From: an uncultured Planctomycetales bacterium
GTDB taxonomy: Bacteria; Omnitrophota; Gorgyraeia; Gygaellales; Profunditerraquicolaceae
Reading direction: 5' to 3'
DNA: 64,000 bases
Assembly (NCBI GenBank): GCA_964467905.1
Contig: CAYXSY010000007.1
Coordinates: 116-64,115 of the forward strand
Positions 19,650 through 49,497 of this stretch are shown here, piece after piece. Within the stretch, counting starts at the first letter, position 1. Each line of letters starts with the position of its first letter. Under the pieces are notes generated by a model. It made no database searches. It saw nothing but the letters and a program-made list of their open reading frames with translations, and was not told the DNA's origin. Made by a program: the position numbers and the translations under genes.

Positions 19650-20378
19650 ATGTCTAAAGATAAAAAAAATTCAGATTACAAAGTTTATATGAAGCAAATC
19701 GAAGCGCTTGCAAAGGTCGCAAGCCTCATTACTTCCGGTATGTATGTAGAAGAACTTTTGCGTTTGATTGTCAATGTTACGGCAGAAGTTATGAATTCTA
19801 AGATTTCGTCTTTGATGCTTTTAGATCCTGATAAAAAGGAATTGGTAATCAGGGCTACGCAATCGATATCAGAGGCTTATAATAAAAAGCCTAATATAAA
19901 AGTCGGCGATGGTATCGCCGGCATAGTGGCGAAAGAAAAGAAGCCGCTGTGTGTTTTAGACGTTAGAAAAGATCCGCGCTATATGAACAGGGATATAGCC
20001 ATAAAGGAAGGGTTGTATTCTTTAGCGAGCGTGCCTATGATAGTAAAGGGAAGACTCAAAGGGGTTATTAATTGTTATACTTCTAAGAAGCATGAGTTTA
20101 CCAAGGGTGAATTAGCTATACTTACTGCTTTGGCAAGTCAGGCAGCAGTGGCTATTGAGAATGCCGAGTTGGATGTGAGGGCGCGTACAGCCGAAGAGGC
20201 CCTTACCAGCCGTAAGATAATTGAGCGCGCAAAGGAAATTATAGCCCAGGAAACAAACATCCTTCCTTCTGAGGCGTACCGCTTGATACAGAAACAGAGC
20301 ATGGACAAGCGTAAAACTATGCGTGAGATTGCCGAAGCTATTATATTAGCTAAAGATGTAACTAATAAAAGTATTTAG
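19650..20378 (+). CDS. GAF-ANTAR one-component RNA-binding antiterminator (paralog 1)
   Basis: N-terminal GAF domain (LRLIVNVTAEVMNS...GVINCYT...AAVAIENAEL). C-terminal ANTAR three-helix region (SRKIIERAKEIIAQETNILPSEAYRLIQKQSMDKRKTMREIAEAIILA). No receiver domain. Confidence 0.85.
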   Translation: MSKDKKNSDYKVYMKQIEALAKVASLITSGMYVEELLRLIVNVTAEVMNSKISSLMLLDPDKKELVIRATQSISEAYNKKPNIKVGDGIAGIVAKEKKPLCVLDVRKDPRYMNRDIAIKEGLYSLASVPMIVKGRLKGVINCYTSKKHEFTKGELAILTALASQAAVAIENAELDVRARTAEEALTSRKIIERAKEIIAQETNILPSEAYRLIQKQSMDKRKTMREIAEAIILAKDVTNKSI

Positions 20379-20385
20379 AAAGACC

Positions 20386-20502
20386 TTGACAGGTTGTTGA
20401 TTTGTGGTATATTCCTTTTAATTGGTGAGTACGAAGACGTCTTACCTTGGAACAAGGGAGACGTCTTTTTATTTTTATAAATAGTGCCTAAAAATTAGGC
20501 AC
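20386..20502 (+). promoter_or_regulatory. promoter plus leader attenuator in front of the Nfn/GltA-like operon
   Basis: TTGACA (20386-20391), 16-nt spacer, TGgTATATT (20405-20413). Terminator: 9-bp stem 20434-20442/20459-20467 and an inner 5-bp stem 20445-20449/20453-20457, followed by TTTTTATTTTT. A competing hairpin 20424-20446 (GGTGAG...CTTACC) could act as an antiterminator. A further 8-bp hairpin lies at 20484-20502, just before the RBS. Confidence 0.65.
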
Positions 20503-20519
20503 AAAATGGCGCAGGAACG

Positions 20520-21359
20520 ATGAAGATATTAAAGAAACAAGTATTGGTTGATTATCACGGGGTAAGGATTGTTAAATTAGAGATTAGTTCTGTAGAAATA
20601 GCAAAGAAGGCTCAAGCAGGACAGTTTATAGCCTTGATGGTTTGCGAGGAAGGCGAAAGGATACCCTTAACCGTAGTAGATAAAGATGAATCCCGGGGTA
20701 GTTTTACGTTGATTTTTCAAGAGGCAGGCTATACTACCGGCCTTCTGGGTCAGCTTGAAGAGGGGGACAGCCTCTATTCTTTAGTAGGTCCTTTGGGACA
20801 TCCTACAGAAATAAAGAAATATTCTAAAGTATTTTTGGTCGGAGGCGGTGTGGGCATTGCTGAAATTTATCCGGTAGCCAGGTCTTTTAAGAAAGCGGGT
20901 GTCCCTGCGGTTTCTATTATTGGTTCCCGTAACAAGGATTTATTAATATTGGAGAAAGAGTTAAAAGAGGCTTCCGATAAATTATTTGTTACCACTGACG
21001 ACGGGTCATATTCCCGTAAGGGCTTTGTTACCGAAGTGTTGAAAGAAGCTTTGAGCTCTGAGGTTTACGATGCGAGTTCGGGATTAGTTTATGCTGTTGG
21101 CCCTATATCGATGATGAGGAGCGTAGCTAAAGTTACCAGAGATTTTAATATCAAAACTTATGTTTCTCTGAATGCCTTAATGGTGGATGCTACGGGTATG
21201 TGCGGATGCTGTAGGGTTACCGTAGGGGGAGAATTGAAATTCTCTTGCGTGGACGGTCCTGACTTTGATGCGCATCTAGTAGATTGGGATGAATTAATCA
21301 AGAGAAATAAGATCTATGAACAAAAAGAAAAGCATATCTGTAATTTAAGTAAATTATAG
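20520..21359 (+). CDS. PyrK-like FAD/NAD(P)-binding [2Fe-2S] subunit (NfnA / SudB type)
   Basis: Ferredoxin-NADP-reductase-like fold (GQFIALM, RIPLTV, LVGGGVGIAE) and a C-terminal MCGCCRV...FSCVDGP cluster motif. It is paired with a GltD-like subunit. Confidence 0.75.
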   Translation: MKILKKQVLVDYHGVRIVKLEISSVEIAKKAQAGQFIALMVCEEGERIPLTVVDKDESRGSFTLIFQEAGYTTGLLGQLEEGDSLYSLVGPLGHPTEIKKYSKVFLVGGGVGIAEIYPVARSFKKAGVPAVSIIGSRNKDLLILEKELKEASDKLFVTTDDGSYSRKGFVTEVLKEALSSEVYDASSGLVYAVGPISMMRSVAKVTRDFNIKTYVSLNALMVDATGMCGCCRVTVGGELKFSCVDGPDFDAHLVDWDELIKRNKIYEQKEKHICNLSKL

Positions 21360-21365
21360 CACAAA

Positions 21366-22790
21366 ATGAGAAAAGAACCGGTAAGAGTAAAAGAATTGGA
21401 AGCGCAGGTCAGGTCGGCAGACTTCATGGAAGTAGTTGCTGGTTATAGCGAAGAGGAAGCGTTGCTTGAGGCATCGCGTTGTCTACAATGTAAAAATCCG
21501 GTTTGTATTTCAGGTTGTCCTGTTAACATCAATATCAAGCAGTTTATTGGTTATATTAATAAGAAAGATTATAAGAACGCGTATCTTACCATCAGAGAAA
21601 AGAACGATTTTCCTTCTATCTGCGGGAGGGTTTGTCCTGCGGAATATCAGTGTCGCAAGGCTTGCGTTTTGACTAAAAAAGGCGCGCCCTTCGCATCTCA
21701 AGAAGCAATTAATATCCATTTTCTGGAAAGATTTGTAGGCGATTACGGCGCAAAGAACAAGCTTGAGGTTCCCGTAGAAAAAGATGAAAAACTTTCTAAA
21801 TTTAAGGTGGCGGTAGTTGGTTCCGGGCCTGCGGGTCTTTGTTGTGCAGGAGAGCTTGCTAGACGCGGTATAAGAGTAGTTATCTTTGAGAGCTTGCATA
21901 AGGCCGGAGGGGTTTTGAGGTATGGTATACCTCCTTTTAGGCTACCGCGCGATATCTTGGATTACGAGATAAATTATTTGAAAAAACTGGGGGTAGAGAT
22001 TATCCCCAATTTCATTATAGGTAAAGCTTTGACCTTGGATGATATTTTTTCGCAAGGTTTCTCTGCCATATTTCTAGGTTTAGGCGCGGGAGTGCCTTCC
22101 TTTTTGGGTATCCCCGGAGAGAACTTTTGCAATATATATTCAGCTAATGAATTTTTGACCCGGGTTAATTTGATGTCCGCATATAAATTCCCAAAGTTTC
22201 ATACTCCGGTGAACATAGGCAAACATGTGGTTATAATCGGCGGGGGGAATACGGCGATGGATGCAGCTAGAGCTGCTTTACGTATTCAGAAGATGTCTGG
22301 CATGGACGCAGATACAACTGTAGTATATCGCAGGAGTGAGGTTGAAATGCCGGCGCGCAGACTGGAAATAGAGCATGCTAAGGAAGAAGGAGTAAAGTTT
22401 GATTTTCTTATTCAGCCATTAGGTTTTACCGGAGATGCTGCAGGGTTCGTGAAAAAGATGAAGTGCCTAAGGTGCAGGCTTGGTGAGCCGGATTCCTCAG
22501 GCAGAAGAAGGCCGGTTCCTATAGAAAATAGTGAATTTGAGATTGATTCTGATATGGCGGTTATTGCAGTGGGTTTAGCTGCTAATCAGATTCTTACCAG
22601 CGTAACTCCAAGTATTAAAACTGATAAATATAAAGATGTAGTTGTTAATCCTGATACTATGGAGACTTCTGTCAGCGGGGTTTTTGCGGGCGGAGATATT
22701 GTGGGTGGTGAAGGTACAGTTATCGAGGCTATGGGGATGAGCAAGAAGGCTTCCAAGGCAATAATTGATTATCTTTCAGAGTTAAAGTAG
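21366..22790 (+). CDS. GltD-homologous NADPH oxidoreductase subunit (NfnB / SudA / 'homotetrameric glutamate synthase GltA' type)
   Basis: N-terminal Cys clusters (CLQCKNPVCISGCP; CGRVCPAEYQCRKAC) and two dinucleotide folds (VAVVGSGPAGL; VVIIGGGNTAMD). Confidence 0.8.
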   Translation: MRKEPVRVKELEAQVRSADFMEVVAGYSEEEALLEASRCLQCKNPVCISGCPVNINIKQFIGYINKKDYKNAYLTIREKNDFPSICGRVCPAEYQCRKACVLTKKGAPFASQEAINIHFLERFVGDYGAKNKLEVPVEKDEKLSKFKVAVVGSGPAGLCCAGELARRGIRVVIFESLHKAGGVLRYGIPPFRLPRDILDYEINYLKKLGVEIIPNFIIGKALTLDDIFSQGFSAIFLGLGAGVPSFLGIPGENFCNIYSANEFLTRVNLMSAYKFPKFHTPVNIGKHVVIIGGGNTAMDAARAALRIQKMSGMDADTTVVYRRSEVEMPARRLEIEHAKEEGVKFDFLIQPLGFTGDAAGFVKKMKCLRCRLGEPDSSGRRRPVPIENSEFEIDSDMAVIAVGLAANQILTSVTPSIKTDKYKDVVVNPDTMETSVSGVFAGGDIVGGEGTVIEAMGMSKKASKAIIDYLSELK

Positions 22791-22919
22791 TACGGTATAG
22801 GGCGGCAGCGTTGGCCGCCAGAACAATGTTAGTTATTCTGTTTTGCTCCTTAGAGCTTGATAGGGGTTAGAGCTACGTAGCAATTGCTTCGAAGCTCTAT
22901 CGTAAGATAGCAGGGCTAA

Positions 22920-24281
<1,362 letters not shown>

Positions 24282-24299
24282 ATTTAGATAACAACATAC

Positions 24300-24554
24300 T
24301 TGACAAGGCTCTAATAGTATGTTATTCTTTTCTTAACAATTTAAAAGAGCACAAGGTTGTGCTTAAGATAAAGGACAAAGGCGTTATATAACAATATAAC
24401 GCCTTTTTCTTTTTTATCCTATTCTATGTGAGAATAATTTTATAAAAGTAAGCCCTTCATGCCCGGTCACTTAGAGGGAGAACGGGGTTTTACTTTTTAT
24501 GTAAACAATGGCGTTTTATGCCGTAATCCGGCATAGAACGCCTTTTTATTTTTT
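24300..24554 (+). promoter_or_regulatory. promoter plus two tandem hexaloop-hairpin/terminator attenuators upstream of GAF-ANTAR paralog 2
   Basis: TTGACA (24300-24305), 17-nt spacer, TGtTATTCT (24320-24328). P1 AGCAC-AAGGTT-GTGCT at 24348-24363. P2 GAC-AAAGGC-GTT at 24374-24385, overlapping terminator 24377-24416 (GGCGTTATAT/ATATAACGCC + T-run). Second unit: AAAC-AATGGC-GTTT at 24503-24516, overlapping terminator 24510-24554 (14-bp stem + TTTTTATTTTTT). Confidence 0.7.
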
Positions 24555-24558
24555 AGCC

Positions 24559-25266
24559 ATGCAAAATTCATTTAATGAACAAATAAAGGCCCTTTCTAAA
24601 ATCAGTAAGGCGATTACTTCAGATTTCTATCTGGAGGATATATTGCGTCTGATTGTTACAGTTACGGCAGAAGTTTTAGATTCTAATATTTGTTCTTTGA
24701 TGCTTATTGATGAGAAAACTGGTGAATTAATTGTCCGGGCTACTCAGAGCGTAAGCGAAGAATACAATAAGAAGATGCCTCTTAAGGTTGGTGAAGGCAT
24801 TGCCGGCAAGGCGGTTGAACATAATAAGGCAATAGCAGTAAAGGATGTTACTAAAGAAAAAGAATATAAACATAAAGATGTCGCCAGAAAAGAAGGGCTC
24901 GTATCTTTGTTATGTGTCCCCATGTCGGTAAAGGGTAAAACAATCGGAGTAATTAATTGTTATACCGCCAAAGCACATAATTTCAGCGATACAGAGATAG
25001 AGATATTGACTACTATTGCCAATCAGGCGGCAGTAGCTATTGAGAATACCGAGCTTATGGTTAAAAGCAGGGTTATCCAGGAAGAACTGGAGACTCGCAA
25101 GAGGATTGAGCGCGCCAAAGGTGTTTTAATGCGTGATGAAAAACTCACTGAGGAACAGGCGTATTTAAAGATCCGTAAATATAGTATGGATAATCGTAAA
25201 AGCATGCGTGAAGTGGCGGAAGCGATTATCTTGGCAGCAGATATGAAGCAATTAATCAGGAGCTAA
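24559..25266 (+). CDS. GAF-ANTAR one-component RNA-binding antiterminator (paralog 2)
   Basis: Clear paralog of 19650-20378, with shared runs LRLIV.VTAEV, RATQS, GVINCYT, AAVAIEN and MRE.AEAIILA. The track start at 24508 lies inside the upstream terminator, so Met at 24559 (MQNSFNEQ...) is taken as the start. Confidence 0.85.
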   Translation: MQNSFNEQIKALSKISKAITSDFYLEDILRLIVTVTAEVLDSNICSLMLIDEKTGELIVRATQSVSEEYNKKMPLKVGEGIAGKAVEHNKAIAVKDVTKEKEYKHKDVARKEGLVSLLCVPMSVKGKTIGVINCYTAKAHNFSDTEIEILTTIANQAAVAIENTELMVKSRVIQEELETRKRIERAKGVLMRDEKLTEEQAYLKIRKYSMDNRKSMREVAEAIILAADMKQLIRS

Positions 25267-25300
25267 GTAGCTCTTTTTGCTGGTTATGAGGTTAATTGTC

Positions 25301-25320
25301 TTAATCCAGGGTTGGGTTAA
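25301..25320 (+). promoter_or_regulatory. isolated ANTAR-P1-like hairpin (7-bp stem, hexaloop AGGGTT)
   Basis: TTAATCC-AGGGTT-GGGTTAA, with one U-G wobble. The loop is nearly identical to the pyrG-leader P1 loop AGGGTA. No terminator follows it. Confidence 0.35.
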
Positions 25321-25368
25321 GCTAAATGGCCAGCGACGTGTATAACAAAAGAAGGGAGGCAAGGTTAT

Positions 25369-27021
25369 ATGAATCTTAGTAGGCCGAATGCGAATGATGC
25401 AACTGGTACGTTTAACCGCTCAAAAAATGTGGTTCCGGGTTCAGGTATTTGTTCCCGTTGTGTAGACGGCTGCAAGGGTAATTGTGAGATTTTTAAGGCA
25501 AGCTTCAGGGGCAGGGAAGTTATTTATCCGGGGCCTTTTGGTGATATAACCGCGGGTGCGGATAAAAATTATCCTGTCGATTATTCTCATTTTAATATCC
25601 AGGGCTATGCTTTAGGCGCTAAAGGTTTAAGTGAAGGTAGCGACGGTAACCCGGATAATACAAAATTCCCGGATGTGGATACTACGACAGAATACGGGTG
25701 GAGCTCTAAAGTTAAAATGGAAGTTCCTATATTTACCGGGGCTTTGGGTTCTACAGAGATTGCGCGTAAAAATTGGGAGCATTTTGCTGTAGGGGCTGGT
25801 ATATCAGGAATAACTTTGGTTTGCGGAGAAAATGTCTGTGGTATTGACCCCGGGCTTGAGCTTGATAGTAAAGGAAAAATTAAGAATTCTCCTGAGATGG
25901 ATCGTCGCATAGAAATATACAGGAGATTCCATAGGGGTTTTGGAGAGATCCTGGTGCAGATGAACGTAGAGGATACGCGTTTGGGAGTAGCTGAATATGT
26001 CCGTACAAAACATAAGTTAGAGACCATTGAGCTTAAATGGGGGCAAGGGGCTAAATGTATCGGAGGCGAAATAAAAGTCCGTAGCCTCGAACGGGCGCTG
26101 GAATTAAAGAAGCGGGGTTATATTGTTACTCCGGACCCGGGCTCAGAGGTTGTGCAGAAGGCGTTTAAAGATGGAGCGATTAAGGAATTTGAAAGGCATT
26201 CGCGCTTAGGTTTTGTCTCTGAAGAGGCATTCTTGGCGGAAATCAAACGCCTTAGAGATTTAGGTTTTAAGAGAATAACGCTTAAGACGGGGGCTTATTC
26301 TATGCGTGAATTGGCCATGGCTATCAAGTATTCTAGCCTTGCCGGGATTGATCTTCTGACTATTGACGGGGCGCCGGGAGGAACGGGTATGAGTCCGTGG
26401 CGGATGATGCAAGAGTGGGGCATCCCTACTTTTTATCTTGAAGCTTTGGCTTACGAGTTTTGTGATAAATTATCTAAGAAAGGCTTACGTGTGCCTGATA
26501 TCGCGATAGCCGGAGGGTTCTCAAGCGAAGACCATGTGTTTAAAGTAATTGCCATGGGCTCTCCTTATGTAAAGGCAGTTTGCATGGGCCGGGCGTTGAT
26601 GATTCCGGGTATGGTAGGCAAAAATATAGGACTTTGGATTAAGGAAGGCGATGTCCCCGTTACAATTTCTTCATATGGGCACACGGAAAAAGAGATATTT
26701 GTCTGTTATGAAGAGCTTATCGAGAAATATGGTAACGAGATGAAGGATATCCCCCTTGGTGCCATAGGTATATATTCTTTTGTCCAAAAAATAAAGGTTG
26801 GGTTGCAGCAACTTATGGCTGGCAGCAGGAATTTCCGGATAAGCACTATCTCCCGCAATGACCTCATGAGTTTGACCGAAGATGCGGCTAAGGTATCAGG
26901 AATTCCTTATGTGATGGATGCTTATCGCAGCGAAGCGGAGTCGATACTAAACGGGGAATCCGATGTAAGACCAGAAAGAGGTTTTGATCGGCAGCGCTTT
27001 AGCGTATCCGCAAGGAGGTAA
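25369..27021 (+). CDS. FMN-binding glutamate-synthase-domain-2-like protein (GltS-related, stand-alone)
   Basis: Homologous by eye to the GltB FMN/synthase domain (IDGAPGGTGMSP versus ISGGDGGTGASP in the window's own GltB; AGGFSSEDHVFKVIAMG). Has an N-terminal CSRCVDGCKGNCE Cys cluster. Confidence 0.7.
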   Translation: MNLSRPNANDATGTFNRSKNVVPGSGICSRCVDGCKGNCEIFKASFRGREVIYPGPFGDITAGADKNYPVDYSHFNIQGYALGAKGLSEGSDGNPDNTKFPDVDTTTEYGWSSKVKMEVPIFTGALGSTEIARKNWEHFAVGAGISGITLVCGENVCGIDPGLELDSKGKIKNSPEMDRRIEIYRRFHRGFGEILVQMNVEDTRLGVAEYVRTKHKLETIELKWGQGAKCIGGEIKVRSLERALELKKRGYIVTPDPGSEVVQKAFKDGAIKEFERHSRLGFVSEEAFLAEIKRLRDLGFKRITLKTGAYSMRELAMAIKYSSLAGIDLLTIDGAPGGTGMSPWRMMQEWGIPTFYLEALAYEFCDKLSKKGLRVPDIAIAGGFSSEDHVFKVIAMGSPYVKAVCMGRALMIPGMVGKNIGLWIKEGDVPVTISSYGHTEKEIFVCYEELIEKYGNEMKDIPLGAIGIYSFVQKIKVGLQQLMAGSRNFRISTISRNDLMSLTEDAAKVSGIPYVMDAYRSEAESILNGESDVRPERGFDRQRFSVSARR

Positions 27022-27023
27022 GC

Positions 27024-27212
27024 ATGGATAACAAAGGGTTATGTATCAATTGTGCTCACGATAAAACTTGCAGCTTTGTAAGATTTCCTTTGATTTTGCA
27101 GTGTGAAGAATTTGATATCGCTTCTGTTAGCACGGCAGAGCAAAAGTTGCAAAGTTTGAAAAAGAGCGCGCAGTATAAACCAGCTACAGAGCAAGAATAT
27201 ACTGTAGAATAA
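27024..27212 (+). CDS. small Cys-rich protein coupled to the GltS-like gene
   Basis: 62 aa with CINCAHDKTCSF...LQCEEF (a 4-Cys pattern). The start lies 2 nt after the upstream stop. Function unknown. Confidence 0.45.
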   Translation: MDNKGLCINCAHDKTCSFVRFPLILQCEEFDIASVSTAEQKLQSLKKSAQYKPATEQEYTVE

Positions 27213-27244
27213 CATTTGTTGCATTGCCAGGTGATTTATGGCTG

Positions 27245-27279
27245 GCCATGGGGCGTAACACTTGCCCCATGGCTATTTT
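27245..27279 (+). terminator. intrinsic terminator after the GltS-like operon
   Basis: A 10-bp GC-rich stem GCCATGGGGC/GCCCCATGGC followed by TATTTT. Confidence 0.75.
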
Positions 27280-27292
27280 GATTAACTTAATC

Positions 27293-27399
27293 TTGACAAA
27301 ACCCTCTGATATGGTAAAATAACTATACATAGGAGCAGTAGCAAGACAGAGAAGTCTTTTAGTAGAGCAAATGCTACTAAAAGACTTTTTTTATTTTTT
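27293..27399 (+). promoter_or_regulatory. promoter plus AAGAC-N6-GTCTT hairpin and leader terminator of the hydrogenase operon
   Basis: TTGACA (27293-27298), 16-nt spacer, TGgTAAAAT (27312-27320). Hairpin AAGAC-AGAGAA-GTCTT at 27343-27358 overlaps the 5' arm of a 13-bp terminator (27353-27365/27374-27386) followed by TTTTTTTATTTTTT. Confidence 0.7.
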
Positions 27400-27412
27400 A
27401 GCTGGTTTTCTA

Positions 27413-30669: not shown

Positions 30670-30695
30670 GGGAATAAAAAAGAAAGGTTTCTAGA

Positions 30696-36773: not shown

Positions 36774-37227
36774 GCACAAAATTGTTGTCTTAGGTATAGG
36801 TTCTGATTTCAGGGGTGATGATGCCTCTGGGCTTATGGCCGCTAGAATTGTTTTAAGAAGGATATCCAGGCGTAAGACGCCAGGCAGAATTAGCGCGGTC
36901 TTTGCAGAGTCAGTTCCTGAAAATATCACAGGTTTAATCCGTAAGATAAAACCTGGCTACGTTATAGTTATTGATTCTGCGCATATAGGTAAGCAGGCTG
37001 GAGATTTTTGTGTCATTGAGCCCAGCGATATAGAAAATAATCTTGTCAGTACCCATAAAGTGTCTTTGGACGTGTTCTCTAGATATCTTGAGCAGAGTAT
37101 AGGTTGTAAAATGTTTATCGTTGGGATACAGCCTAAGTCTATAAAATTCGGTTCTTCTGTTACTAAACAGGTAGCATTAGCCGCAAAAAAAGTAGCCGTT
37201 ACGTTAATTGAGCTTGACAAGGCCTGA
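36730..37227 (+). CDS. hydrogenase maturation endopeptidase (HycI-like)
   Basis: KIVVLGIGSDFRGDDASG, then DSAH and VSTHK. Met at 36730 is chosen; the track start at 36688 lies deeper inside the previous gene. Confidence 0.75.
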   Translation: MNHLKEALRGKLKNKHKIVVLGIGSDFRGDDASGLMAARIVLRRISRRKTPGRISAVFAESVPENITGLIRKIKPGYVIVIDSAHIGKQAGDFCVIEPSDIENNLVSTHKVSLDVFSRYLEQSIGCKMFIVGIQPKSIKFGSSVTKQVALAAKKVAVTLIELDKA

Positions 37228-37359
37228 TTATATGGTATAATTTACTTGTAATAGATAAGAAAGACAAAGATGTCTTCAGGCAAATAGGCCTGAAGATTTT
37301 TTATTCTCTAGGACTAAGGCGTCCTTTTATCCGGTGGTGGGTAGAGGGACGTTTTTTTT
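37214..37359 (+). promoter_or_regulatory. promoter plus two tandem hairpin/terminator units upstream of the sigma-factor gene
   Basis: TTGACA (37214-37219), 16-nt spacer, TGgTATAAT (37233-37241). AAGAC-AAAGAT-GTCTT at 37261-37276 overlaps terminator TCTTCAGGC/GCCTGAAGA + TTTTTT (37273-37302). GGAC-TAAGGC-GTCC at 37311-37324 overlaps a second stem (37320-37328/37343-37351) followed by T8. Confidence 0.65.
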
Positions 37360-37375: not shown

Positions 37376-37900
37376 ATGAGTGATTTTGAGATTTTATTAA
37401 AAAGAATATCGCCGGTTTTAAAAAGAATAACCTTTAAATTAGGCGGATATCATACTTTTCTTAACGAAGAAGATTTATATCAGGAAGCCCTGGTATTTTT
37501 ATGGCAAAAATTAGGCTTGGGCGAGCTTTCTGATAAGACGGATAGTTATATACTACAGGGTTGTTATTTTCATCTTAAGAATTATATAAGAAAAAAATAC
37601 AAGAAGATTAATTTTATAAGCATAGATAATATTATAAATGCTGAAGAAGATAACACGCGCAGTGGTTTTTCATTGAAAGATGAGAAATCGCTTTATTACA
37701 GAGACGAGCTTAATGCCAGGTTTATTGCGGATTCTATACGCAATAACGGGTTAGACGATAGAGAAAAAGAGATTGTGGGCTATTATGCGCAGGGTCTTAC
37801 TACCAGGGACATAGGGAAACGATTAGGCCTTTCCCATGTACGTATAGTAAAAATAACCGCCGAAATACGGGTTAAATGCCGCAAGCATATAGATTATTGA
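37376..37900 (+). CDS. ECF-like sigma-70 family factor (regions 2 and 4 only)
   Basis: Region 2 is EDLYQEALVFLWQK. Region 4 HTH is REKEIVGYYAQGLTTRDIGKRLGLSHVRIVKI. No anti-sigma gene is evident next to it. Confidence 0.65.
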   Translation: MSDFEILLKRISPVLKRITFKLGGYHTFLNEEDLYQEALVFLWQKLGLGELSDKTDSYILQGCYFHLKNYIRKKYKKINFISIDNIINAEEDNTRSGFSLKDEKSLYYRDELNARFIADSIRNNGLDDREKEIVGYYAQGLTTRDIGKRLGLSHVRIVKITAEIRVKCRKHIDY

Positions 37901-37971
37901 TTTTGTTGTTACCAATTCATGTAAATTGTTACTTGTATAAGTGAAACACATTGATGTGTAGTAGTAAAGCC

Positions 37972-38009
37972 AAGGATGCTTAAGTTTTAAGTATCCTTTT
38001 TTTGTTTTT
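37972..38009 (+). terminator. intrinsic terminator after the sigma-factor gene
   Basis: A 12-bp stem AAGGATGCTTAA/TTAAGTATCCTT (one G-U pair), 3-nt loop, then TTTTTTTGTTTTT. Confidence 0.75.
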
Positions 38010-38012: not shown

Positions 38013-38066
38013 AAGACGTTGGTGTCTTTTTGGCATTGGAGTCGCCAGGAAGGCGCCATTTTTTTT
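38013..38066 (+). promoter_or_regulatory. AAGAC-N6-GTCTT hairpin plus U-run, then a GC hairpin plus T8; alternatively a sigma54-like -24/-12 element
   Basis: AAGAC-GTTGGT-GTCTT at 38013-38028, followed by TTT. CGCC-AGGAA-GGCG at 38043-38055, flanked by TGG/CCA and followed by T8 (38059-38066). TGGCAT-N5-TCGC at 38031-38045 matches the GG/GC spacing of sigma54 promoters. Confidence 0.4.
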
Positions 38067-38860: not shown

Positions 38861-38881
38861 TTTCTAAAAAGGAGGGAGTTT

Positions 38882-40111: not shown

Positions 40112-40122
40112 GGAGGATTATA

Positions 40123-40464: not shown

Positions 40465-40531
40465 AAAAAGATGTTACCAAAGTACAGGTTTATTTACTTG
40501 TATATATAGATAATCAAAGCTCGTTTTTTTA

Positions 40532-40611
40532 GCACATCGTAGTGCAAAAATAGGCATAAAGAAGACAGGGGCGTTCTTCAATCGCAAGGAAGGACGCCTC
40601 TTTATTTTTTT
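40532..40611 (+). promoter_or_regulatory. dual hexaloop hairpins plus terminator between glnK and glnN
   Basis: P1 GCAC-ATCGTA-GTGC at 40532-40545. P2 GAC-AGGGGC-GTT at 40564-40575, overlapping a 13-bp terminator stem (40567-40579/40589-40601) followed by TTTATTTTTTT. An extended -10 TGgTATAAT at 40620-40628 lies downstream of the terminator. Confidence 0.6.
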
Positions 40612-40656
40612 ATAGGCTGTGGTATAATAAAGAAAATTATTCATAGGAGGGTGTAT

Positions 40657-42849: not shown

Positions 42850-42905
42850 AAGCTTTTAGATATATAGAGTACGCTGTAGTATTCTAAAGAATATTTTCTA
42901 AGAAA

Positions 42906-42964
42906 GAACATCGACGTTCATAAAAGTTGGATTATTTTTCCAGCTTGGATGAACGTCTTTTTTT
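42906..42964 (+). promoter_or_regulatory. hexaloop hairpin overlapping a terminator between glnN and the mini-NtrC/gltB genes
   Basis: GAAC-ATCGAC-GTTC at 42906-42919 overlaps the 5' arm of stem GACGTTCAT/ATGAACGTC (42913-42921/42949-42957), followed by TTTTTTT. Confidence 0.55.
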
Positions 42965-43024
42965 ATCCATTATGCCATAATGGAATATTCTTATAACAAG
43001 CATTGATTAAGGTTTGGGCAAAAT

Positions 43025-43402
43025 ATGATAACTATATTGATAGCTGATGATGAAATTAAGGCAAAAGAAAACCTTGTTAACGTGTTAAAGCAGGGCGGCT
43101 ATGACTTAGCGGATGGTTTCGCGGCGGATAATACTATAAGATTTATGAGGAAGAAGGATATAAGTGATTTATCTTTCGTCAGGGATATAGTTATTGAGTT
43201 AGATGATTCTTTGATTAAAGAGAATAAGGGCGCATTATACAGAACTGTACTTGAGGCCATAGAAAAGCCTTTGTTTGAGCGCATACTGGAGCGTACAGAG
43301 GGCAATCAACTTAAAGCCGCTAGGATACTAGGGATAAACCGTAATACTATGCGTACCAAGATGAAGAAATTCGGGATAAATATAAACAAATGGAAAATAT
43401 GA
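43025..43402 (+). CDS. mini NtrC-like protein: receiver-domain remnant plus Fis-type HTH, no AAA+ domain
   Basis: The N-terminus MITILIADDEIKAKENLVNVLKQGGYDL looks like receiver beta1-alpha1-beta2. The C-terminus LYRTVLEAIEKPLFERILERTEGNQLKAARILGINRNTMRTKMKKFGI is a typical NtrC/Fis HTH_8. Only 125 aa. Overlaps the gltB start. Confidence 0.6.
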   Translation: MITILIADDEIKAKENLVNVLKQGGYDLADGFAADNTIRFMRKKDISDLSFVRDIVIELDDSLIKENKGALYRTVLEAIEKPLFERILERTEGNQLKAARILGINRNTMRTKMKKFGININKWKI

Positions 43403-46400
43403 GAGAATATAATCATTTTCCCAGAAAGCAAGGGCTTTACGATCCTGCATTTGAGCATGATGCGTGTGGAGTAGGTTTTGTCTGTAATATCAAAGGTAAA
43501 CGCAGTAATAAGATCGTCCGGCAGGGGCTTGAAGTTTTGGAGCATCTGTCTCATCGTGGCGCAACCGGGGCCGACCCTAAGACAGGAGACGGGGCGGGGA
43601 TATTAATACAGATGCCACATAACTTTTTTGCTGCTATTTTAGATGGCACTAATATTAATCTTCCTGTAGCCGGAGAATACGGCACAGGGTTAGTATTCCT
43701 TCCTGTTGATAGTGCTGAGCGTAATTGGTGCAAGGACTTATTTAGCAAGGTTATCAAAGAAGAGGGGCAGGTTCTATTGGGCTGGAGGAAAGTTCCCGTA
43801 GATAACAGTTGCATAGGGCATACAGCGCGCAGCAGCCAGCCTGAAATCGAGCAGCCTTTCATTAAGAAAAGCGGCGAATTCTCGGATGACCTTGGCTTTG
43901 AAAGAAAACTTTATATTATCAGGAAGAGAATAGAAAACCAAGTGCGGTCTTCAAAGATAAGGCAAAAGAGTTTCTTTTATATTACCAATCTTTCTTCCCG
44001 GACTTTTTCTTATAAAGGTCTTTTAATGAGTGAGCAGTTAAGGAGTTTCTTTAAGGACTTATCCGACGAGCGGATTGCTAGCGCCATATCCCTGGTGCAT
44101 TCCAGATACAGCACCAATACTTTTCCCACCTGGGATTTGGCTCAGCCGTTTAGGTTTATCGCCCATAATGGAGAGATTAATACTTTACGCGGGAATATAA
44201 ATTGGATGCGCGCCAGACAAGGGCTATTGAAAAGTAAGTTGTTCGGTAAGAAGTTAAAACAAATATTTCCTGTTATTGTTCCGGGTGGAAGCGACTCGGC
44301 TACGCTGGATAATGTGTTTGAATTACTCATGCTTTCAGGAAGGGACCTGGCGCATGTTATGCTTATGCTTATACCCAGTGCCTGGGAACAGAACAAACTT
44401 CTTGCTAAGGGATTACGGGATTTCTATAAATATCACGCTTGTATTATGGAACCCTGGGATGGCCCGGCAGCGATTGCTTTTAGCGACGGGAAAAGAGTTG
44501 GTGCGGTGCTTGATAGAAACGGGTTAAGGCCGGCGCGCTATATTATTACCAGAGACGATACCGTGGTTATGGCATCGGAGGTGGGGGTTTTGGATATCCC
44601 TGCAGAAGATATCATTAGTTCGGGCAGGCTTAATCCGGGTAAAATATTCTTTATTGATACAGAACAGGGCCGTATTGTTGATGATAAGCAGATTAAAGAA
44701 GGCATCTCAAAGAAATCTGAATTTGGTTCTTGGTTGAAAAACAATATGCTTGAGTTGGATAATCTGCCTTCTGTTAAGGATAAGAAGCCGGACAAAACAG
44801 ATACGGCTGTTTTGTTGAAGGCTTTTGGTTATAGTCGCGAGGACTTAAAATTCATTATCAAACCCATGTTTGAAAACTCTCAGGAGCCGGTGGGTTCAAT
44901 GGGTAATGATACCCCGCATGCTGTTTTATCGAAGAGGAGCCAGCTACTATATTCTTATTTTAAGCAACTGTTTGCACAGGTGACGAATCCCGCTATCGAT
45001 CCTATCAGGGAGGAACTCGTTATGAGTTTAGACACTTACCTGGGGCCGGAGGGTAATTTACTTGATGAATCAGCTTTACATTGTCATAAGCTGCAAGCCA
45101 GGCGTCCGGTACTTACTGACGAAGAGCTTGCAAGAATACGTTTTATAAAAATTAATGGTTTTAAAACCAAGACTATCCCGTTGCTTTTTAAGGCAGCTGA
45201 TAAAAAAGATTTTTTGAGAGCGCTTGAGCGCATATGCAGGGAGTCAGAGAAGGCCATTAAGGATAAATATACGTTTATTATTTTAAGTGATAGGGGAGTC
45301 AGCAAGGAACATGCGGCTTTGCCTGCTTTACTTGCAACCGGAGCCGTGCACCATTATTTGATAAAGAAAGCATTGCGTAATCAGATAAGCATCATATTAG
45401 AGAGTGCCGAGCCCAGGGAGGTTCATCATTTTGCTCTGCTATTTGGCTACGGCGCAGATTGTATCAATCCCTATCTTGCTTATCGGGCGTTGGGTTATAT
45501 CATAAATGAAGAAAAAACCAAAATCGATTTAAAGACTGCAACGCTCCGTTATATAAAAGCCGTAGATAAGGGGATCTTAAAGATTCTTTCTAAAATGGGG
45601 ATTTCTACTCTACAGAGCTACCGCGGGGCCCAAATATTTGAAGCTTTTGGTATAAACGATAAGGTTATAGAGCGCTGTTTTGCAGGGACGGCCTCCAGAA
45701 TAGGCGGTGTTGATTTTGAGCAGATTCGCAAGGAGTGTGTTTTAAGGCACGGTGATGCTTTTGTCTCCATAGGATCAGCCAATCCTAATCTGGACACAGG
45801 AGGTATATATCAATATAAGAAAGACGGGGAGTTTCATCTCTGGAATCCCGATAGCATATCCGCCTTGCAGGATTCCGTCTGGAATAATGATTATAATAAA
45901 TACAAGATTTTTGCCGGATTAATAAACAATCAACAGGGCAATCCTACGACATTAAGGGGATGTTTGAAGTTTAAAGTTGCTCAACCTGTACCGATAGAGC
46001 AAGTTGAGTCAGCTGAATCTATAGTTAGGCGTTTTGTAACCGGAGCAATGAGTTTTGGATCGATCAGCAAGCAGGCGCACGAGACGATGGCGATAGCTAT
46101 GAATAGGATGGGCGCTAAGTCTAATAGCGGAGAGGGCGGAGAAGATCCGGAGCGTTTCTTTCCACTCCCAAACGGGGATTTACGCAGAAGCGCGATTAAA
46201 CAAGTTGCATCCGGGAGGTTCGGCGTTACCACTAATTACCTGATTAACGCAGATGAATTACAGATTAAGATTGCGCAGGGGGCAAAGCCGGGAGAGGGGG
46301 GGCAGCTGCCGGGGCATAAAGTAAGCCCTATAATTGCCAAGACGCGTTATACAACCGCAGGCGTAACTTTGATTTCTCCACCTCCGCATCACGATATTTA

Positions 46401-47931
46401 TTCGATTGAGGATTTGGCACAGCTGATATTTGATTTAAAGAATACCAACCCCCGTGCGCGAGTAAGCGTTAAGCTTGTATCCGAGATAGGAGTAGGGACA
46501 ATAGCTGCCGGAGTAGCTAAAGGACATGCTGATATGATTTTGATTTCAGGGGGTGACGGCGGCACAGGAGCTTCCCCGCTTAGTTCTATAAAACACGCAG
46601 GTCTGCCTTGGGAATTGGGAATCTCCGAGACGCATCAGACTTTGGTCCTAAATGATTTAAGAAGCAGAGTAAGGCTGCAAGCCGACGGACAGATGCGCAC
46701 CGGACGAGATATAGCAGTTGCCTGTCTTCTGGGAGCGGAAGAATTCGGGTTTGCTACGGCAGTCTTGATTACTCTTGGTTGTGTTATGCTGAGGCATTGC
46801 CATTTAAATAATTGTTCAGTGGGCATAGCTACGCAGGAAGAGCTATTGTGCAATAAATTTCATGGTAAGCCGGAGTATATAATTAATTATTTTAGATTTG
46901 TGGCTGAGGAGTTGCGTGAGATTATGGCATCTCTTGGCTTAAGGACTATTAACGAGATGGTAGGTAGGACCGAGTTTCTGGAGATAAATAAAGATATACT
47001 GCCCTGGAAAGCAACGGGCCTGGATTATTCCCGCATTCTTTACAAGCCTAAGACAGCAAAGAGAGAGGATGTTTATTGTTCTGTTGCCCAGAACCACGGT
47101 CTGGAGAATATTTTAGATAAGAAATTAATAGTTTTGTCAGATAAAGCCCTTAAGAATAAACAAAGTGTTAATATGGAGCTTACGGTTAACAACACTAATC
47201 GTACTACGGGCGCGATGTTAAGCGGTGAAGTTTGCCGTCTCCACGCAGAGGAGGCTCTTGCAGAAGATACTATTTACTGTAAGTTTAGGGGAGTTGCCGG
47301 ACAGAGCTTCGGTGCTTTCCTGGCTAAAGGTATTACTTTTGAACTTGAGGGTATGAGTAATGATTATGTAGGGAAAGGGATTTCAGGTGGCAAGATTATC
47401 ATTTATCCTGATCGTAAAGCTAGGTATGCACCGGAAGAAAACATAATTATAGGTAATACTACTTTTTACGGGGCGATAAATGGCGAGGCCTATATAAACG
47501 GTATAGCTGGTGAGCGTTTTTGCATACGTAATTCCGGGCTCCTGGCAGTAGTAGAGGGGGTAGGAGATCACGCCTGTGAATATATGACTGGGGGTAAGGT
47601 TGTTGTGTTGGGCAAAACAGGGAGGAATTTCGCTGCGGGTATGTCCGGAGGGGTTGCTTATGTTTATGATGAAAGTAATGATTTCAGAAATAAATGCAAT
47701 ATGGAGATGGTTGAATTAGGGGCCCTGGATAAAGAAGATAGAGAAAATCTGCATATGCTGCTTAATAATCACTATAGATATACAAAAAGTAATAAAACGC
47801 GCATTATACTTGATGATTTCGTGACTCAAGCAAAGAAATTTGTCAAAGTAATGCCGATTGAATATAAGAAGATATTAGAACACAAGAAGCTGGAAAAGAA
47901 AATGGAGCTTGCGGAGGTATCGGACGGTTAA
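43390..47931 (+). CDS. gltB: glutamate synthase large subunit
   Basis: 1513 aa. Ntn-amidotransferase Cys in HDACGVGF, a central domain, an FMN/3Fe-4S domain (SGEGGE, ISGGDGGTGASP, C..C cluster region), and a C-terminal GXGXG beta-helix domain. The exact start (43390 or 43399) is uncertain. Confidence 0.95.
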   Translation: MENMREYNHFPRKQGLYDPAFEHDACGVGFVCNIKGKRSNKIVRQGLEVLEHLSHRGATGADPKTGDGAGILIQMPHNFFAAILDGTNINLPVAGEYGTGLVFLPVDSAERNWCKDLFSKVIKEEGQVLLGWRKVPVDNSCIGHTARSSQPEIEQPFIKKSGEFSDDLGFERKLYIIRKRIENQVRSSKIRQKSFFYITNLSSRTFSYKGLLMSEQLRSFFKDLSDERIASAISLVHSRYSTNTFPTWDLAQPFRFIAHNGEINTLRGNINWMRARQGLLKSKLFGKKLKQIFPVIVPGGSDSATLDNVFELLMLSGRDLAHVMLMLIPSAWEQNKLLAKGLRDFYKYHACIMEPWDGPAAIAFSDGKRVGAVLDRNGLRPARYIITRDDTVVMASEVGVLDIPAEDIISSGRLNPGKIFFIDTEQGRIVDDKQIKEGISKKSEFGSWLKNNMLELDNLPSVKDKKPDKTDTAVLLKAFGYSREDLKFIIKPMFENSQEPVGSMGNDTPHAVLSKRSQLLYSYFKQLFAQVTNPAIDPIREELVMSLDTYLGPEGNLLDESALHCHKLQARRPVLTDEELARIRFIKINGFKTKTIPLLFKAADKKDFLRALERICRESEKAIKDKYTFIILSDRGVSKEHAALPALLATGAVHHYLIKKALRNQISIILESAEPREVHHFALLFGYGADCINPYLAYRALGYIINEEKTKIDLKTATLRYIKAVDKGILKILSKMGISTLQSYRGAQIFEAFGINDKVIERCFAGTASRIGGVDFEQIRKECVLRHGDAFVSIGSANPNLDTGGIYQYKKDGEFHLWNPDSISALQDSVWNNDYNKYKIFAGLINNQQGNPTTLRGCLKFKVAQPVPIEQVESAESIVRRFVTGAMSFGSISKQAHETMAIAMNRMGAKSNSGEGGEDPERFFPLPNGDLRRSAIKQVASGRFGVTTNYLINADELQIKIAQGAKPGEGGQLPGHKVSPIIAKTRYTTAGVTLISPPPHHDIYSIEDLAQLIFDLKNTNPRARVSVKLVSEIGVGTIAAGVAKGHADMILISGGDGGTGASPLSSIKHAGLPWELGISETHQTLVLNDLRSRVRLQADGQMRTGRDIAVACLLGAEEFGFATAVLITLGCVMLRHCHLNNCSVGIATQEELLCNKFHGKPEYIINYFRFVAEELREIMASLGLRTINEMVGRTEFLEINKDILPWKATGLDYSRILYKPKTAKREDVYCSVAQNHGLENILDKKLIVLSDKALKNKQSVNMELTVNNTNRTTGAMLSGEVCRLHAEEALAEDTIYCKFRGVAGQSFGAFLAKGITFELEGMSNDYVGKGISGGKIIIYPDRKARYAPEENIIIGNTTFYGAINGEAYINGIAGERFCIRNSGLLAVVEGVGDHACEYMTGGKVVVLGKTGRNFAAGMSGGVAYVYDESNDFRNKCNMEMVELGALDKEDRENLHMLLNNHYRYTKSNKTRIILDDFVTQAKKFVKVMPIEYKKILEHKKLEKKMELAEVSDG

Positions 47932-47932
47932 A

Positions 47933-49357
47933 ATGGGCGATATCAAGGGGTTCTTAAAGGTTAAAAGGGATACGGTCGATTACCGGCCGGTATGTGAAAG
48001 GGTAAACGATTTTTGTGAAGTTTGTCTTTTGCCTAAAGAAGAAAAGTCTAAGGCTCAAGCATCACGTTGTATGGATTGCGGCACTCCTTTTTGTAATTGG
48101 GCTTGTCCATTAGGAAATTATATACCGGAATGGAATGATTTTATGTTTAAGGGCAATTGGGAGAAAGCATTGGAGCTTTTATCGGCGACGAACAACCTGC
48201 CTGAGGTTACCGGCAGAATTTGCCCAGCCCTATGTGAATATTCCTGCGTTTTGGGCATTAATGACGAAGCTGTTTCTATCAAGGATAACGAGCTTGCAAT
48301 TATCGAGTACGGTTTCAAGCATAATTTAATCAAACCTAGGCCGCCGGAGCGCCGTACGGGAAAGAAAGTAGCTGTAGTCGGCTCGGGTCCGGCCGGGCTC
48401 TCTTGTGCAGATCAGTTAAATAAGGCAGGCCACAGGGTTGTTGTTTTTGAAAGAGATGATGCTATAGGCGGTATCTTGCGTTACGGGATACCGGATTTTA
48501 AATTGGAAAAAACTATACTTCAGCGGCGCCTGAATATTATGAAAAAGGAAGGCATCAAATTTATGACTTCGGTTAATATCGGGTTTGACATGGGTATAGA
48601 CAAGCTAAAGAAAGAATTTGATGCCATATGTCTTGCCGGTGGCAGCCGCGTTCCGCGCGATTTAAATATAGCAGGCAGAGAATTGAAGGGGATACATTTT
48701 GCCATGGATTATCTTATGCAGTCAAATAGGAGGATAGCTAAACAAAAAATAAGCCTAGAAAAGCTCATTGATGCTAAGGGCAAGAAGGTAGTAGTTATCG
48801 GAGGAGGAGATACTGGAGCTGATTGTGTGGGTGTCGCCCATCGTCAAGGAGCTTCCTGTATTGTGCAAATAGAATTGTTGCCTAAGCCTTCGGAATCAAG
48901 GACTAAAGATTTCCCTTGGCCGAAATACCCCGCAATTTTAAAGACTTCTACCAGTCATGATGAAGGCGGAGAGCGTCAATGGTCAATTCTCACCAAGCGT
49001 TTTATCGGAGAAGGTGGAAGGGCTAAAAAATTGCTTTGTGCCAAGGTTAATGTAATCAGGGATCCCTCCGGAGTTATTAAGATAGAGGAAATACGGGGGA
49101 CAGATTTTGAAATCGATGCCGATTTAGTTATTCTGGCGCTTGGGTTTTTGTGCCCTGAGAAAAAAGGCATTATCGAGGATTTGGGCCTTGAGCTTGATCA
49201 GCGCGGTAACGTTAAAACAGATATCAACTTTATGACTTCTATAAAAGGTATATTCTGCGCAGGAGATATGCATAGAGGACAATCTTTGGTGGTCTGGGCT
49301 ATTTTAGAGGCGCGTCGGGCAGCTCTTAGCATAGATAGGTATCTTATGTCTGATTAA
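47933..49357 (+). CDS. gltD: glutamate synthase small subunit (NADPH)
   Basis: RCMDCGTPFC and CPALCEYSC clusters, plus VAVVGSGPAGL and VVVIGGGDTGADC dinucleotide folds. Met at 47933 (MGDIKGF) follows the gltB stop by 1 nt. The track start at 47909 is rejected. Confidence 0.93.
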   Translation: MGDIKGFLKVKRDTVDYRPVCERVNDFCEVCLLPKEEKSKAQASRCMDCGTPFCNWACPLGNYIPEWNDFMFKGNWEKALELLSATNNLPEVTGRICPALCEYSCVLGINDEAVSIKDNELAIIEYGFKHNLIKPRPPERRTGKKVAVVGSGPAGLSCADQLNKAGHRVVVFERDDAIGGILRYGIPDFKLEKTILQRRLNIMKKEGIKFMTSVNIGFDMGIDKLKKEFDAICLAGGSRVPRDLNIAGRELKGIHFAMDYLMQSNRRIAKQKISLEKLIDAKGKKVVVIGGGDTGADCVGVAHRQGASCIVQIELLPKPSESRTKDFPWPKYPAILKTSTSHDEGGERQWSILTKRFIGEGGRAKKLLCAKVNVIRDPSGVIKIEEIRGTDFEIDADLVILALGFLCPEKKGIIEDLGLELDQRGNVKTDINFMTSIKGIFCAGDMHRGQSLVVWAILEARRAALSIDRYLMSD

Positions 49358-49388
49358 AAAGTGAGCATCTGTGGCTTTGCGTTTGGTA

Positions 49389-49497
49389 TTGACTTATAAT
49401 TATGTCGTGGTATAATTTAAGTGTAATTCAGGGTAGAATTGCTATAAAACAATGGCGTTTAGAGATAGGAAAATTGTCTCTAAGCGCCATTTTTATT
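49389..49497 (+). promoter_or_regulatory. promoter plus canonical dual-hexaloop (ANTAR-type) attenuator of the pyrG-carAB-purF operon
   Basis: TTGACT (49389-49394), 16-nt spacer, TGgTATAAT (49408-49416). P1 GTAATTC-AGGGTA-GAATTGC at 49423-49442. 4-nt linker. P2 AAAC-AATGGC-GTTT at 49447-49460, overlapping a 14-bp terminator stem (49452-49465/49477-49490) followed by TTTTATT. Confidence 0.75.

Follow-up and report, generated by a model that had tools for sequence, protein, structure and literature searches.

A nitrogen-assimilation gene cluster of Candidatus Omnitrophota with recurrent probable ANTAR-type attenuators, two GAF-ANTAR regulators and a putative sigma factor layer

The published RNA target of ANTAR antiterminators consists of two stem-loops with hexaloops, a terminal C:G pair and a preference for A at loop position 1 (A1) and G at position 4 (G4), the second stem-loop (P2) being embedded in a terminator (PMC3369931, PMC7496416, PMC8934654). 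In the target of EutV, a conserved Tyr is the stacking partner of G4 and one hexaloop suffices as the minimal motif for binding, while the upstream stem-loop (P1) is needed in vivo and acts as a recruitment hairpin (PMC8934654). In a covariance search, Ramesh et al. (2012, PLoS Genet) predicted ANTAR targets across many phyla before genes encoding P-II proteins, ammonium transporters, glutamine synthetase and glutamate synthase; Desulfotomaculum acetoxidans had 13 of them, spread over six transcription units, and D. reducens had them at its glutamate synthase genes (PMC3369931). Here we analyze a 64-kb stretch of DNA (contig CAYXSY010000007.1 of assembly GCA_964467905.1; hereafter the window), in which a 30-kb nitrogen-assimilation gene cluster encodes two GAF-ANTAR proteins and carries a hairpin/terminator unit of this kind at one operon leader after another. 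A nitrogen-assimilation supercluster under post-initiation ANTAR-type antitermination, to which a sigma factor layer appears to be added, is in our judgment the likely explanation and the best one.

Ten sites had been listed in an earlier note on this DNA, which described a hexaloop hairpin with A1 and G4 whose 3' arm is shared with the 5' arm of a strong terminator. A hexaloop hairpin was recovered at all ten, each with its 3' arm within the 5' arm of an intrinsic terminator and each with loop G4 and a C:G closing pair (10/10), so that the overlap and G4 stood as described; A1 was present in seven of the ten and absent at 37310 (TAAGGC), 38013 (GTTGGT) and 20431 (GAAGAC). One further unit (37946-37998) had been missed, which brings the cluster to about 11 units, all on the + strand. 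The C:G closing pair is present in every unit, at 37969 as the sole remaining stem pair, and in all 11 the P2 loop and 3' arm lie inside the terminator 5' arm, making the two folds mutually exclusive. Two tandem stem-loops in the canonical order P1-linker-P2-terminator were observed at 24347, 40532, 42865 and 49423. The pair is partly kept, with a degenerate or replaced partner hairpin, at 24444-24516 (within the unit 24444-24542), 37261 and 37946, and a single hairpin is found at 20431, 27343, 37310 and 38013; a recognisable upstream P1 is thus limited to between four and six units. At the level of sequence, every feature of the published ANTAR target is represented among the window units.

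Folding of the leaders with and without P2, a check proposed in the earlier note, favoured the terminator in all 11 units (by 3.8-17.7 kcal/mol). The difference from the P2-forced fold was 10-18 kcal/mol in ten units and 3.8 kcal/mol in the first unit of the sigma factor leader. As the terminator is far more stable than the P2 fold, termination would be the default, and read-through would need a stabilising factor. P2 stems of single-hairpin units comprise 5 bp with two to three G-C pairs, and those of dual-hairpin units 3-4 bp with one G-C pair, a pattern that fits a role of P1 as recruiter mattering most where P2 is weak.

The four canonical units precede the gene of the second GAF-ANTAR regulator (ANTAR2), glnN, the helix-turn-helix (HTH)-gltB-gltD operon and the pyrG-carA-carB-purF operon. 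Unit a of the ANTAR2 leader (24347-24406) has P1 GAGCAC-AAGGTT-GTGCTT (24347-24364), P2 GAC-AAAGGC-GTT (24374-24385), a terminator at 24377-24406 (favoured by 15.7 kcal/mol) and a promoter at 24300-24328, and is conserved in loci L081-L084 (L numbers denote the loci used for comparison). The glnN leader (40532-40601) has P1 GCAC-ATCGTA-GTGC, P2 GAC-AGGGGC-GTT (40564-40575) and a terminator at 40567-40601 (14.5 kcal/mol), and the HTH-gltB-gltD leader (42865-42957) has P1 TAGAGTAC-GCTGTA-GTATTCTA, P2 GAAC-ATCGAC-GTTC (42906-42919) and a terminator at 42913-42957 (12.0 kcal/mol), with orthologous sites in 12 loci. In the pyrG leader (49423-49491), a promoter at 49389-49416 is followed by P1 GTAATTC-AGGGTA-GAATTGC, P2 AAAC-AATGGC-GTTT (49447-49460) and a terminator at 49451-49491 (17.7 kcal/mol).

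The remaining units depart from this layout in different ways. Unit b of the ANTAR2 leader (24444-24542) has P2 AAAC-AATGGC-GTTT (24503-24516) and a terminator at 24510-24542, and in the place of P1 a long hairpin (24444-24497), which has a non-hexaloop apex, is conserved with compensatory changes and has no match in Rfam; the same layout is shared with L081 (about 9860-9935), L082 and L083. The leader of the nfnA-gltA-gdh operon (20431-20476; sigma70-like promoter at 20386-20413) holds a degenerate single hairpin AC-GAAGAC-GT with a terminator at 20433-20466 (10.9 kcal/mol), its ortholog in L012 being a canonical GGAC-AAAGGC-GTCC hairpin with terminator. Upstream of the group-4 hydrogenase operon, a single hairpin AAGAC-AGAGAA-GTCTT (27343-27391; terminator 27348-27391) follows a promoter at 27293-27320. 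The sigma factor gene has a promoter with a 12/12 match to consensus (37214-37241) and two units: unit a (37261-37297) with AAGAC-AAAGAT-GTCTT and a terminator at 37272-37297, whose P1 is degenerate in the window and canonical (TTAC-AGCGTT-GTAG) upstream of the orthologs in L001 and L002, and unit b (37310-37355), a single hairpin AGGAC-TAAGGC-GTCCT with a terminator at 37316-37355, kept as GGAC-YNNGNN-GTCC in L001, L002, L003, L010 and L017. The porin-amtB-glnK leader likewise has two units. Unit a (37946-37998) combines P1 ACAC-ATTGAT-GTGT with a degenerate P2 C-AAGGAT-G and a terminator at 37972-37998, the orthologs having a canonical P2 AAC-AAAGGC-GTT. Unit b (38013-38066) has the hairpin AAGAC-GTTGGT-GTCTT, and orthologs with AGAC-RNNGRC-GTCT plus terminator occur in L002, L003, L008, L010, L017 and L084; the hairpin had been placed correctly in the earlier note, with an end coordinate that cut off its terminator (38020-38058, U-tract to 38066). 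A conserved tandem layout emerges from these leaders, in which a dual-hairpin unit or one with an AAGAC-N6-GTCTT type hairpin (class 2) is followed by a single-hairpin unit.

The source genome is assigned to Candidatus Omnitrophota by sequence similarity: the 120 best homologs of ANTAR2 are 77-98% identical to it and all those with an organism name belong to Omnitrophota/Omnitrophica, and the loci retrieved via the glutamine synthetase gene likewise point to this phylum. The 21 leaders used to build a covariance model (R1) all came from other Omnitrophota genomes, with no window sequence included. Searched without filters, the model recovered the four canonical window sites (40532-40575, E 2.4e-8; 42868-42919, E 1.8e-7; 24348-24385, E 7e-6; 49425-49459, E 1.7e-3), all on the + strand, while degenerate units gave E values of 0.4-4 (0.43 for unit a of the porin leader). 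Over 1.41 Mb of loci, 41 of 41 R1 matches were on the gene strand, and six further loci added 11 matches, all on the + strand. An R1 match at 37234-37274 was rejected as a true P1, its P1 being the -10 box of the promoter.

A complementary strict scan required AC-NNNGNN-GT with the loop and 3' arm opening a single-hairpin terminator (dG <= -12) followed by a T-run; it superseded a first, looser hairpin/terminator scan that had produced many false positives in coding sequence. The window yielded nine matches, every one of them in a leader and on the + strand; coding sequence and the - strand gave none. The Omnitrophota loci yielded 38, without exception on the gene strand. At 27243-27275, where a plain terminator ends an operon, the scan detected no ANTAR motif. 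In 1.06 Mb of non-Omnitrophota loci (both strands) there were 13 matches, 9-10 of them directly upstream of glnN in Firmicutes; the three to four unexplained matches give a background of about 0.2 expected per window, against nine observed. The Firmicutes glnN leaders (Clostridia, Lachnospiraceae; L038, L042, L045, L046, L050, L054, L059, L061, L080) show a near-identical P2, GAAC-AAAGGC-GTTC, with terminator. When GAF-ANTAR genes were sought by tblastn in the vicinity of glnN in other phyla, the only matches were to the ANTAR domain without GAF (L056, L062, L069) or to GAF without ANTAR (L024, L042).

Conservation of the hairpins with compensatory changes in orthologous leaders, which the earlier note had set as a check, was observed in other Omnitrophota. 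The proportion of paired cells in the model alignment is 99.7%, as against 22-55% when the partner column is slid, and the alignment has 16 G.U cells and one non-pair. Compensatory changes occur in four of the five P1 pairs (GCAC/GTGC, ACAC/GTGT, GTAC/GTAC, ATAC/GTAT, AATTC/GAATT), and the C:G loop-closing pair is invariant in P1 (33/33) and P2 (41/41). P1 loops of the alignment have G4 in 32 of 32 cases and A1 in 22 of 32 (G in eight, T in two); P2 loops from the scan, for which G4 was a prerequisite, have A1 in 32 of 47 (G in nine, T in five, C in one). P2 is almost invariant as GAAC-A..GGC-GTTC. At its third pair, AAC/GTT (24), GAC/GTC (16) and the G.U intermediate GAC/GTT (5) were counted in the window and the Omnitrophota loci, and the two hairpin classes distinguished in the earlier note, real as sequences, thus differ by a single covarying base pair, with G.U forms in between. 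The class is kept per leader position across genomes, with GAC/GTC in the second units of the sigma and porin leaders and AAC/GTT in the glnN, gltB and ANTAR2 units. An attempt to map hairpin class to GAF-ANTAR paralog, a match that the earlier note had considered possible, did not succeed, class 2 leaders occurring beside both A1-type and A3-type ANTAR genes (orthogroups described below).

Pfam identified GAF and ANTAR domains in both predicted regulators, in agreement with the earlier note: regulator 1 (ANTAR1; 19650-20378, + strand; GAF_2 77 bits, ANTAR 63.7 bits) and regulator 2 (ANTAR2; 24559-25266, + strand; ANTAR 73.9 bits), the cutoff for ANTAR (PF03861) being 27.3 bits. The paralogs are 55% identical, and the nearest solved ANTAR domains are those of EutV (6wsh), Rv1626 (1s8n) and NasR (4akk). 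ANTAR2 retains the equivalents of EutV R142, K143, K149, E160, Y164 and M172, with K147 replaced by R. Three GAF-ANTAR orthogroups were distinguished, A1 behind the aminotransferase gene, A2 ahead of the GltS-like gene, and A3. In a comparison with orthologs from L001-L003, L012, L083 and L084, the A1 orthogroup, to which ANTAR1 belongs, was seen to keep all EutV contacts except E160, a G4-contacting residue, which is replaced by P, S or A; the Glu is kept in A2 and A3, and A3 has Phe in the place of the stacking Tyr. The A2 gene is preceded by two tandem attenuators in all genomes checked. Moreover, wherever an Omnitrophota locus extends far enough, a GAF-ANTAR gene is found beside the genes for sigma factor, AmtB, GlnK, glutamine synthetase and GltBD. 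In about 25 Omnitrophota loci no ANTAR gene of any other kind was seen, and the GAF-ANTAR genes always adjoin attenuated operons.

The best PDB match of the GAF domain is the GAF of PtsP (EI-Ntr; 3trc, E 7e-18), and the NCBIfam models nifA (66 bits) and ptsP (58 bits) match in the GAF region only. The PtsP GAF binds glutamine (PMC4848567), the NifA GAF binds 2-oxoglutarate (PMC12998190), and the NifA GAF is contacted by GlnB in Azospirillum (PMC3854208). Based on this similarity, it is plausible that the GAF-ANTAR proteins sense a metabolite directly. The earlier note had proposed that a metabolite could be read in this way, and the ligands of the nearest GAF domains are candidates. In several relatives (L010, L017, L085, L086), a gene for a glutamine-dependent NAD synthetase (CN_hydrolase and NAD_synthase domains) lies downstream of the GAF-ANTAR gene, preceded by tandem attenuators in L010 (560-760) and L017 (2920-3100); in L085/L086 the region is around 8100-9900.

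Between the two attenuators of its own leader and the first leader unit of porin-amtB-glnK, the gene at 37376-37900 (+ strand) encodes a 174-aa ECF-like sigma factor of an Omnitrophota-specific family (TIGR02937, 47.2 bits, cutoff 42.9), located behind the consensus sigma-70 promoter. Among its 933 homologs, one bears only the label 'bacterium' while all others with an organism name belong to Omnitrophota/Omnitrophica, and in the loci examined the gene is always inside the nitrogen-assimilation cluster. A promoter-like element, GTTACC-N16-TACTTGTA, is present in the leaders of porin-amtB-glnK (37908-37937, + strand) and glnN (40473-40502, + strand), two copies in the window where 0.00 are expected. 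In the Omnitrophota loci 21 copies were found, all on the + strand and each just upstream of a P1 hairpin, and in every sigma-bearing locus the first copy lies 3-26 nt past the sigma stop codon. Loci with the element are L001-L006, L010, L015, L017 and L084-L086. The element occurs in the window and six glnN-derived sigma-bearing loci and in none of about six loci without the sigma gene; it recurs in two loci retrieved independently by way of sigma homologs (L085, L086), and with one mismatch in L084. We infer that this sigma factor recognises the GTTACC-N16-TACTTGTA promoters.

These observations can be combined in a model of regulation. The leader RNA on its own would fold into the terminator, giving a default OFF state, while the beginning of the terminator 5' arm could instead form P2 with an AC...GT top, G4 and usually A1. 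One or both GAF-ANTAR proteins, when in the RNA-binding state, would grip the hexaloop and hold P2, allowing RNA polymerase to read through. For a weak P2 of 3-4 bp, binding would be aided by the upstream recruitment hairpin P1, whereas a P2 of 5 bp may be bound directly. The PtsP/NifA-type GAF would most likely read glutamine and/or 2-oxoglutarate, or meet the P-II protein GlnK. Furthermore, the ECF-like sigma factor, itself attenuated, would serve the GTTACC-N16-TACTTGTA promoters of porin-amtB-glnK and glnN, and of gltBD in relatives, and the sigma-dependent transcripts would be attenuated again, forming a feed-forward AND gate. The location of ANTAR2 behind two attenuators of its own would create positive autoregulation. 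The sequences directly show conserved and covarying RNA motifs, P2 and terminator folds that exclude each other, the domains of the proteins and the synteny of the loci. From these we deduce which protein acts on which RNA, what the ligand would be, in which direction the system would respond and which promoters the sigma factor would use.

The ANTAR attenuators could also operate with a different input, the signal arriving through GlnK contacting the GAF domain, or with an ANTAR regulator from outside the window (e.g. a REC-ANTAR protein) as the antiterminator. Both the cluster and its relatives are rich in P-II genes, an interaction of the NifA GAF with GlnB is documented (PMC3854208), and the window shows no more than 64 kb of the genome. 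We nonetheless regard this as rather unlikely, given that GAF-ANTAR genes are the sole ANTAR genes in the roughly 25 loci and always stand by attenuated operons, that ANTAR2 itself lies behind two such attenuators, and that the closest relative of the GAF, that of PtsP, is a direct glutamine binder.

The palindromic form and fixed 6-bp spacer of the repeats (GCAC-N6-GTGC, GAAC-N6-GTTC, AAGAC-N6-GTCTT), together with a conserved HTH_8 protein encoded within the cluster (43025-43402), would suit DNA operators, for that protein for example, with a coincidental overlap with the terminators. This is very improbable: the motif occurs on the transcribed strand exclusively (52/52 model matches, 47/47 strict-scan matches), the 6-nt spacers have a conserved, asymmetric sequence (A1, G4, GGC), the sites are downstream of promoters and always fused to a terminator arm, and the compensatory half-site changes (GCAC/GTGC, ACAC/GTGT, GTAC/GTAC, AATTC/GAATT) with 16 G.U cells fit RNA and not a DNA half-site code. 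Ordinary terminators, or attenuators of another class (riboswitch, T-box, PyrR, pyrG reiterative transcription) with hexaloops arising by chance, are in our opinion close to excluded. Leaders of pyrG with terminators are known in Firmicutes, and a weak Rfam match to a PyrR site covers 37240-37357 (33 bits against a gathering score of 54 bits, E 0.47); yet Rfam has nothing at gathering score in the whole window, and at E <= 1 over 19600-50000 nothing but weak PyrR-site and rliH matches appears, all far below threshold. Nine strict-scan matches against about 0.2 by chance, the ordinary operon-end terminator at 27243-27275 without the motif, and conservation of the motif across genomes with full strand specificity likewise speak for ANTAR-type antitermination.

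Several points nevertheless tell against antitermination by the GAF-ANTAR proteins as proposed. Three P2 loops have no A1, and four to five units are without a P1 hairpin, though EutV needs P1 in vivo. The covariation counts derive from a model-fitted alignment and are hence biased towards structure, and with P2 near-invariant its pairing draws mainly on one covarying pair. The hydrogenase-leader hairpin, compared using L013, L015 and a metagenome scan, is identical in a relative of 89% identity (L087) and absent in relatives of 58-61% identity, and the pyrG leaders of L006 and L009 have no ANTAR site. Both sites are lineage-specific. Of the regulon drawn in the earlier note the genes are confirmed, and membership of the hydrogenase and pyrG operons is weak. 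The proposed pairing of sigma factor and promoter is drawn from their co-occurrence. The proposal as a whole comes from sequence comparison of an uncultivated organism, and with 64 kb of the genome visible, another ANTAR protein could be the true regulator.

Gene calls were checked against Pfam and NCBIfam, and all genes named in the earlier note were recovered. Genes for NadE, an AsnC regulator and an aminotransferase lead up to the ANTAR1 gene (19650-20378, + strand), downstream of which an NfnA-like/GltA-like pair and glutamate dehydrogenase (gdh) are encoded. The ANTAR2 gene (24559-25266, + strand) is followed by a gene for a 550-aa protein (25369-27212), whose sole domain match is to the FMN/Glu_synthase domain with no match in NCBIfam, and by a 62-aa Cys-rich open reading frame (ORF); this gene, a Cys-rich ORF of 57-62 aa and ANTAR2 form a conserved operon in L081-L084. 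An 8-bp hairpin between ANTAR2 and the GltS-like gene (25300-25321, CTTAATCC-AGGGTT-GGGTTAAG) was rejected as an ANTAR site, the relatives L081 and L083 having a tetraloop and no terminator, and may affect mRNA processing, stability or translation. The group-4 [NiFe] hydrogenase operon, with Mrp-type subunits and HycI, probably begins at ATG 27413, the start in the mechanical ORF list (ATG 27371) falling inside the terminator loop of the leader. Further along are the porin-like gene, which starts at ATG 38093 after the second terminator and not at the listed TTG 38030, amtB and glnK (P-II), glnN (type III glutamine synthetase, GSIII), and the Fis-type HTH gene with gltB and gltD. The 125-aa HTH protein (43025-43402) is essentially a Fis/NtrC C-terminal HTH (HTH_8) with no receiver or AAA+ domain, and its gene is directly upstream of gltB in nearly all Omnitrophota loci. 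The last operon encodes PyrG, CarA, the N-terminal half of CarB and a PurF-like amidotransferase. At only 550 aa, its carB (52210-53862) takes in the ATP-grasp half at the N terminus and the oligomerisation domain, suggesting that the large subunit of carbamoyl-phosphate synthase is split or half-size.

The analysis provides a model, concrete enough to be tested, of how a large uncultivated phylum may regulate nitrogen assimilation. For the GAF-ANTAR architecture, which is abundant and uncharacterised (no GAF-ANTAR protein is reported as characterised in the literature), the cluster may represent the best-defined natural regulon, with about eleven target RNAs in one locus and many orthologous sets. 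The single-hairpin units would be natural single-hexaloop attenuators, the existence of which was left open by the EutV structural work, and an orphan ECF-like sigma family gains a candidate promoter. The current view of ANTAR antitermination is not overturned.

In the literature searched, no paper linking ANTAR with Omnitrophota was found. The impression conveyed in the earlier note that the locus does not look like a described system did not hold in this form, since ANTAR nitrogen regulons were predicted by Ramesh et al. in 2012 (PMC3369931). Those regulons share with the window hexaloop or dual-hexaloop hairpins over terminators before nitrogen genes and many sites per genome; the window differs in its phylum, its one-component GAF-ANTAR regulators, the single-hairpin second unit of the tandems and the ECF-like sigma/promoter layer, and adds NfnAB-like/GDH, group-4 hydrogenase and pyrG-carAB-purF as targets. 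A more far-reaching reading is that the whole forms an architecture not described elsewhere: GAF-ANTAR proteins reading glutamine/2-oxoglutarate, two to three paralogs differing at the G4-contact residue (Glu vs Pro/Ser/Ala) and serving AAC/GTT dual or GAC/GTC 5-bp single units, a phylum-specific sigma factor with GTTACC-N16-TACTTGTA promoters in an AND-gated feed-forward arrangement, and a lineage extension to the membrane-bound hydrogenase and glutamine-consuming nucleotide biosynthesis. We put this combination forward tentatively, as a possibility worth entertaining.

Compared to EutV/EutW of Enterococcus faecalis (6WSH, 6WW6), the system in the window has the same ANTAR2 RNA contacts, the same arrangement of a P1 recruiter and a P2 in the terminator with a key G4, and several attenuators per locus. 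In contrast to the phosphorylated receiver and ethanolamine regulon of that system, it combines a GAF domain with nitrogen assimilation. Some of its units are without P1, and where both hairpins are present the linker between them measures 2 to about 30 nt; in the EutV system, by contrast, activity is lost when the linker is extended by 20 nt. NasR of Klebsiella oxytoca is similarly a one-component protein with a ligand sensor fused to ANTAR, and its consensus from systematic evolution of ligands by exponential enrichment (terminal C:G, A1, G4, two stem-loops) equals the motif described here (PMC7496416); NasR, however, senses nitrate/nitrite through a NIT domain and controls a single operon, as opposed to the GAF domain and multi-operon network of the window. 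GnfK/GnfR of Geobacter sulfurreducens also employs ANTAR antitermination of nitrogen genes within a cascade (Ueki and Lovley 2010, PMC2995071), but there a histidine kinase governs the response regulator GnfR in a sigma-54/NtrC-type cascade, while the window system is kinase-free with an ECF-like sigma factor. Thus, the type of switch is already described, and what is new is the phylum, the GAF sensor, the conserved tandem layout with single-hairpin second units and the sigma/promoter layer.

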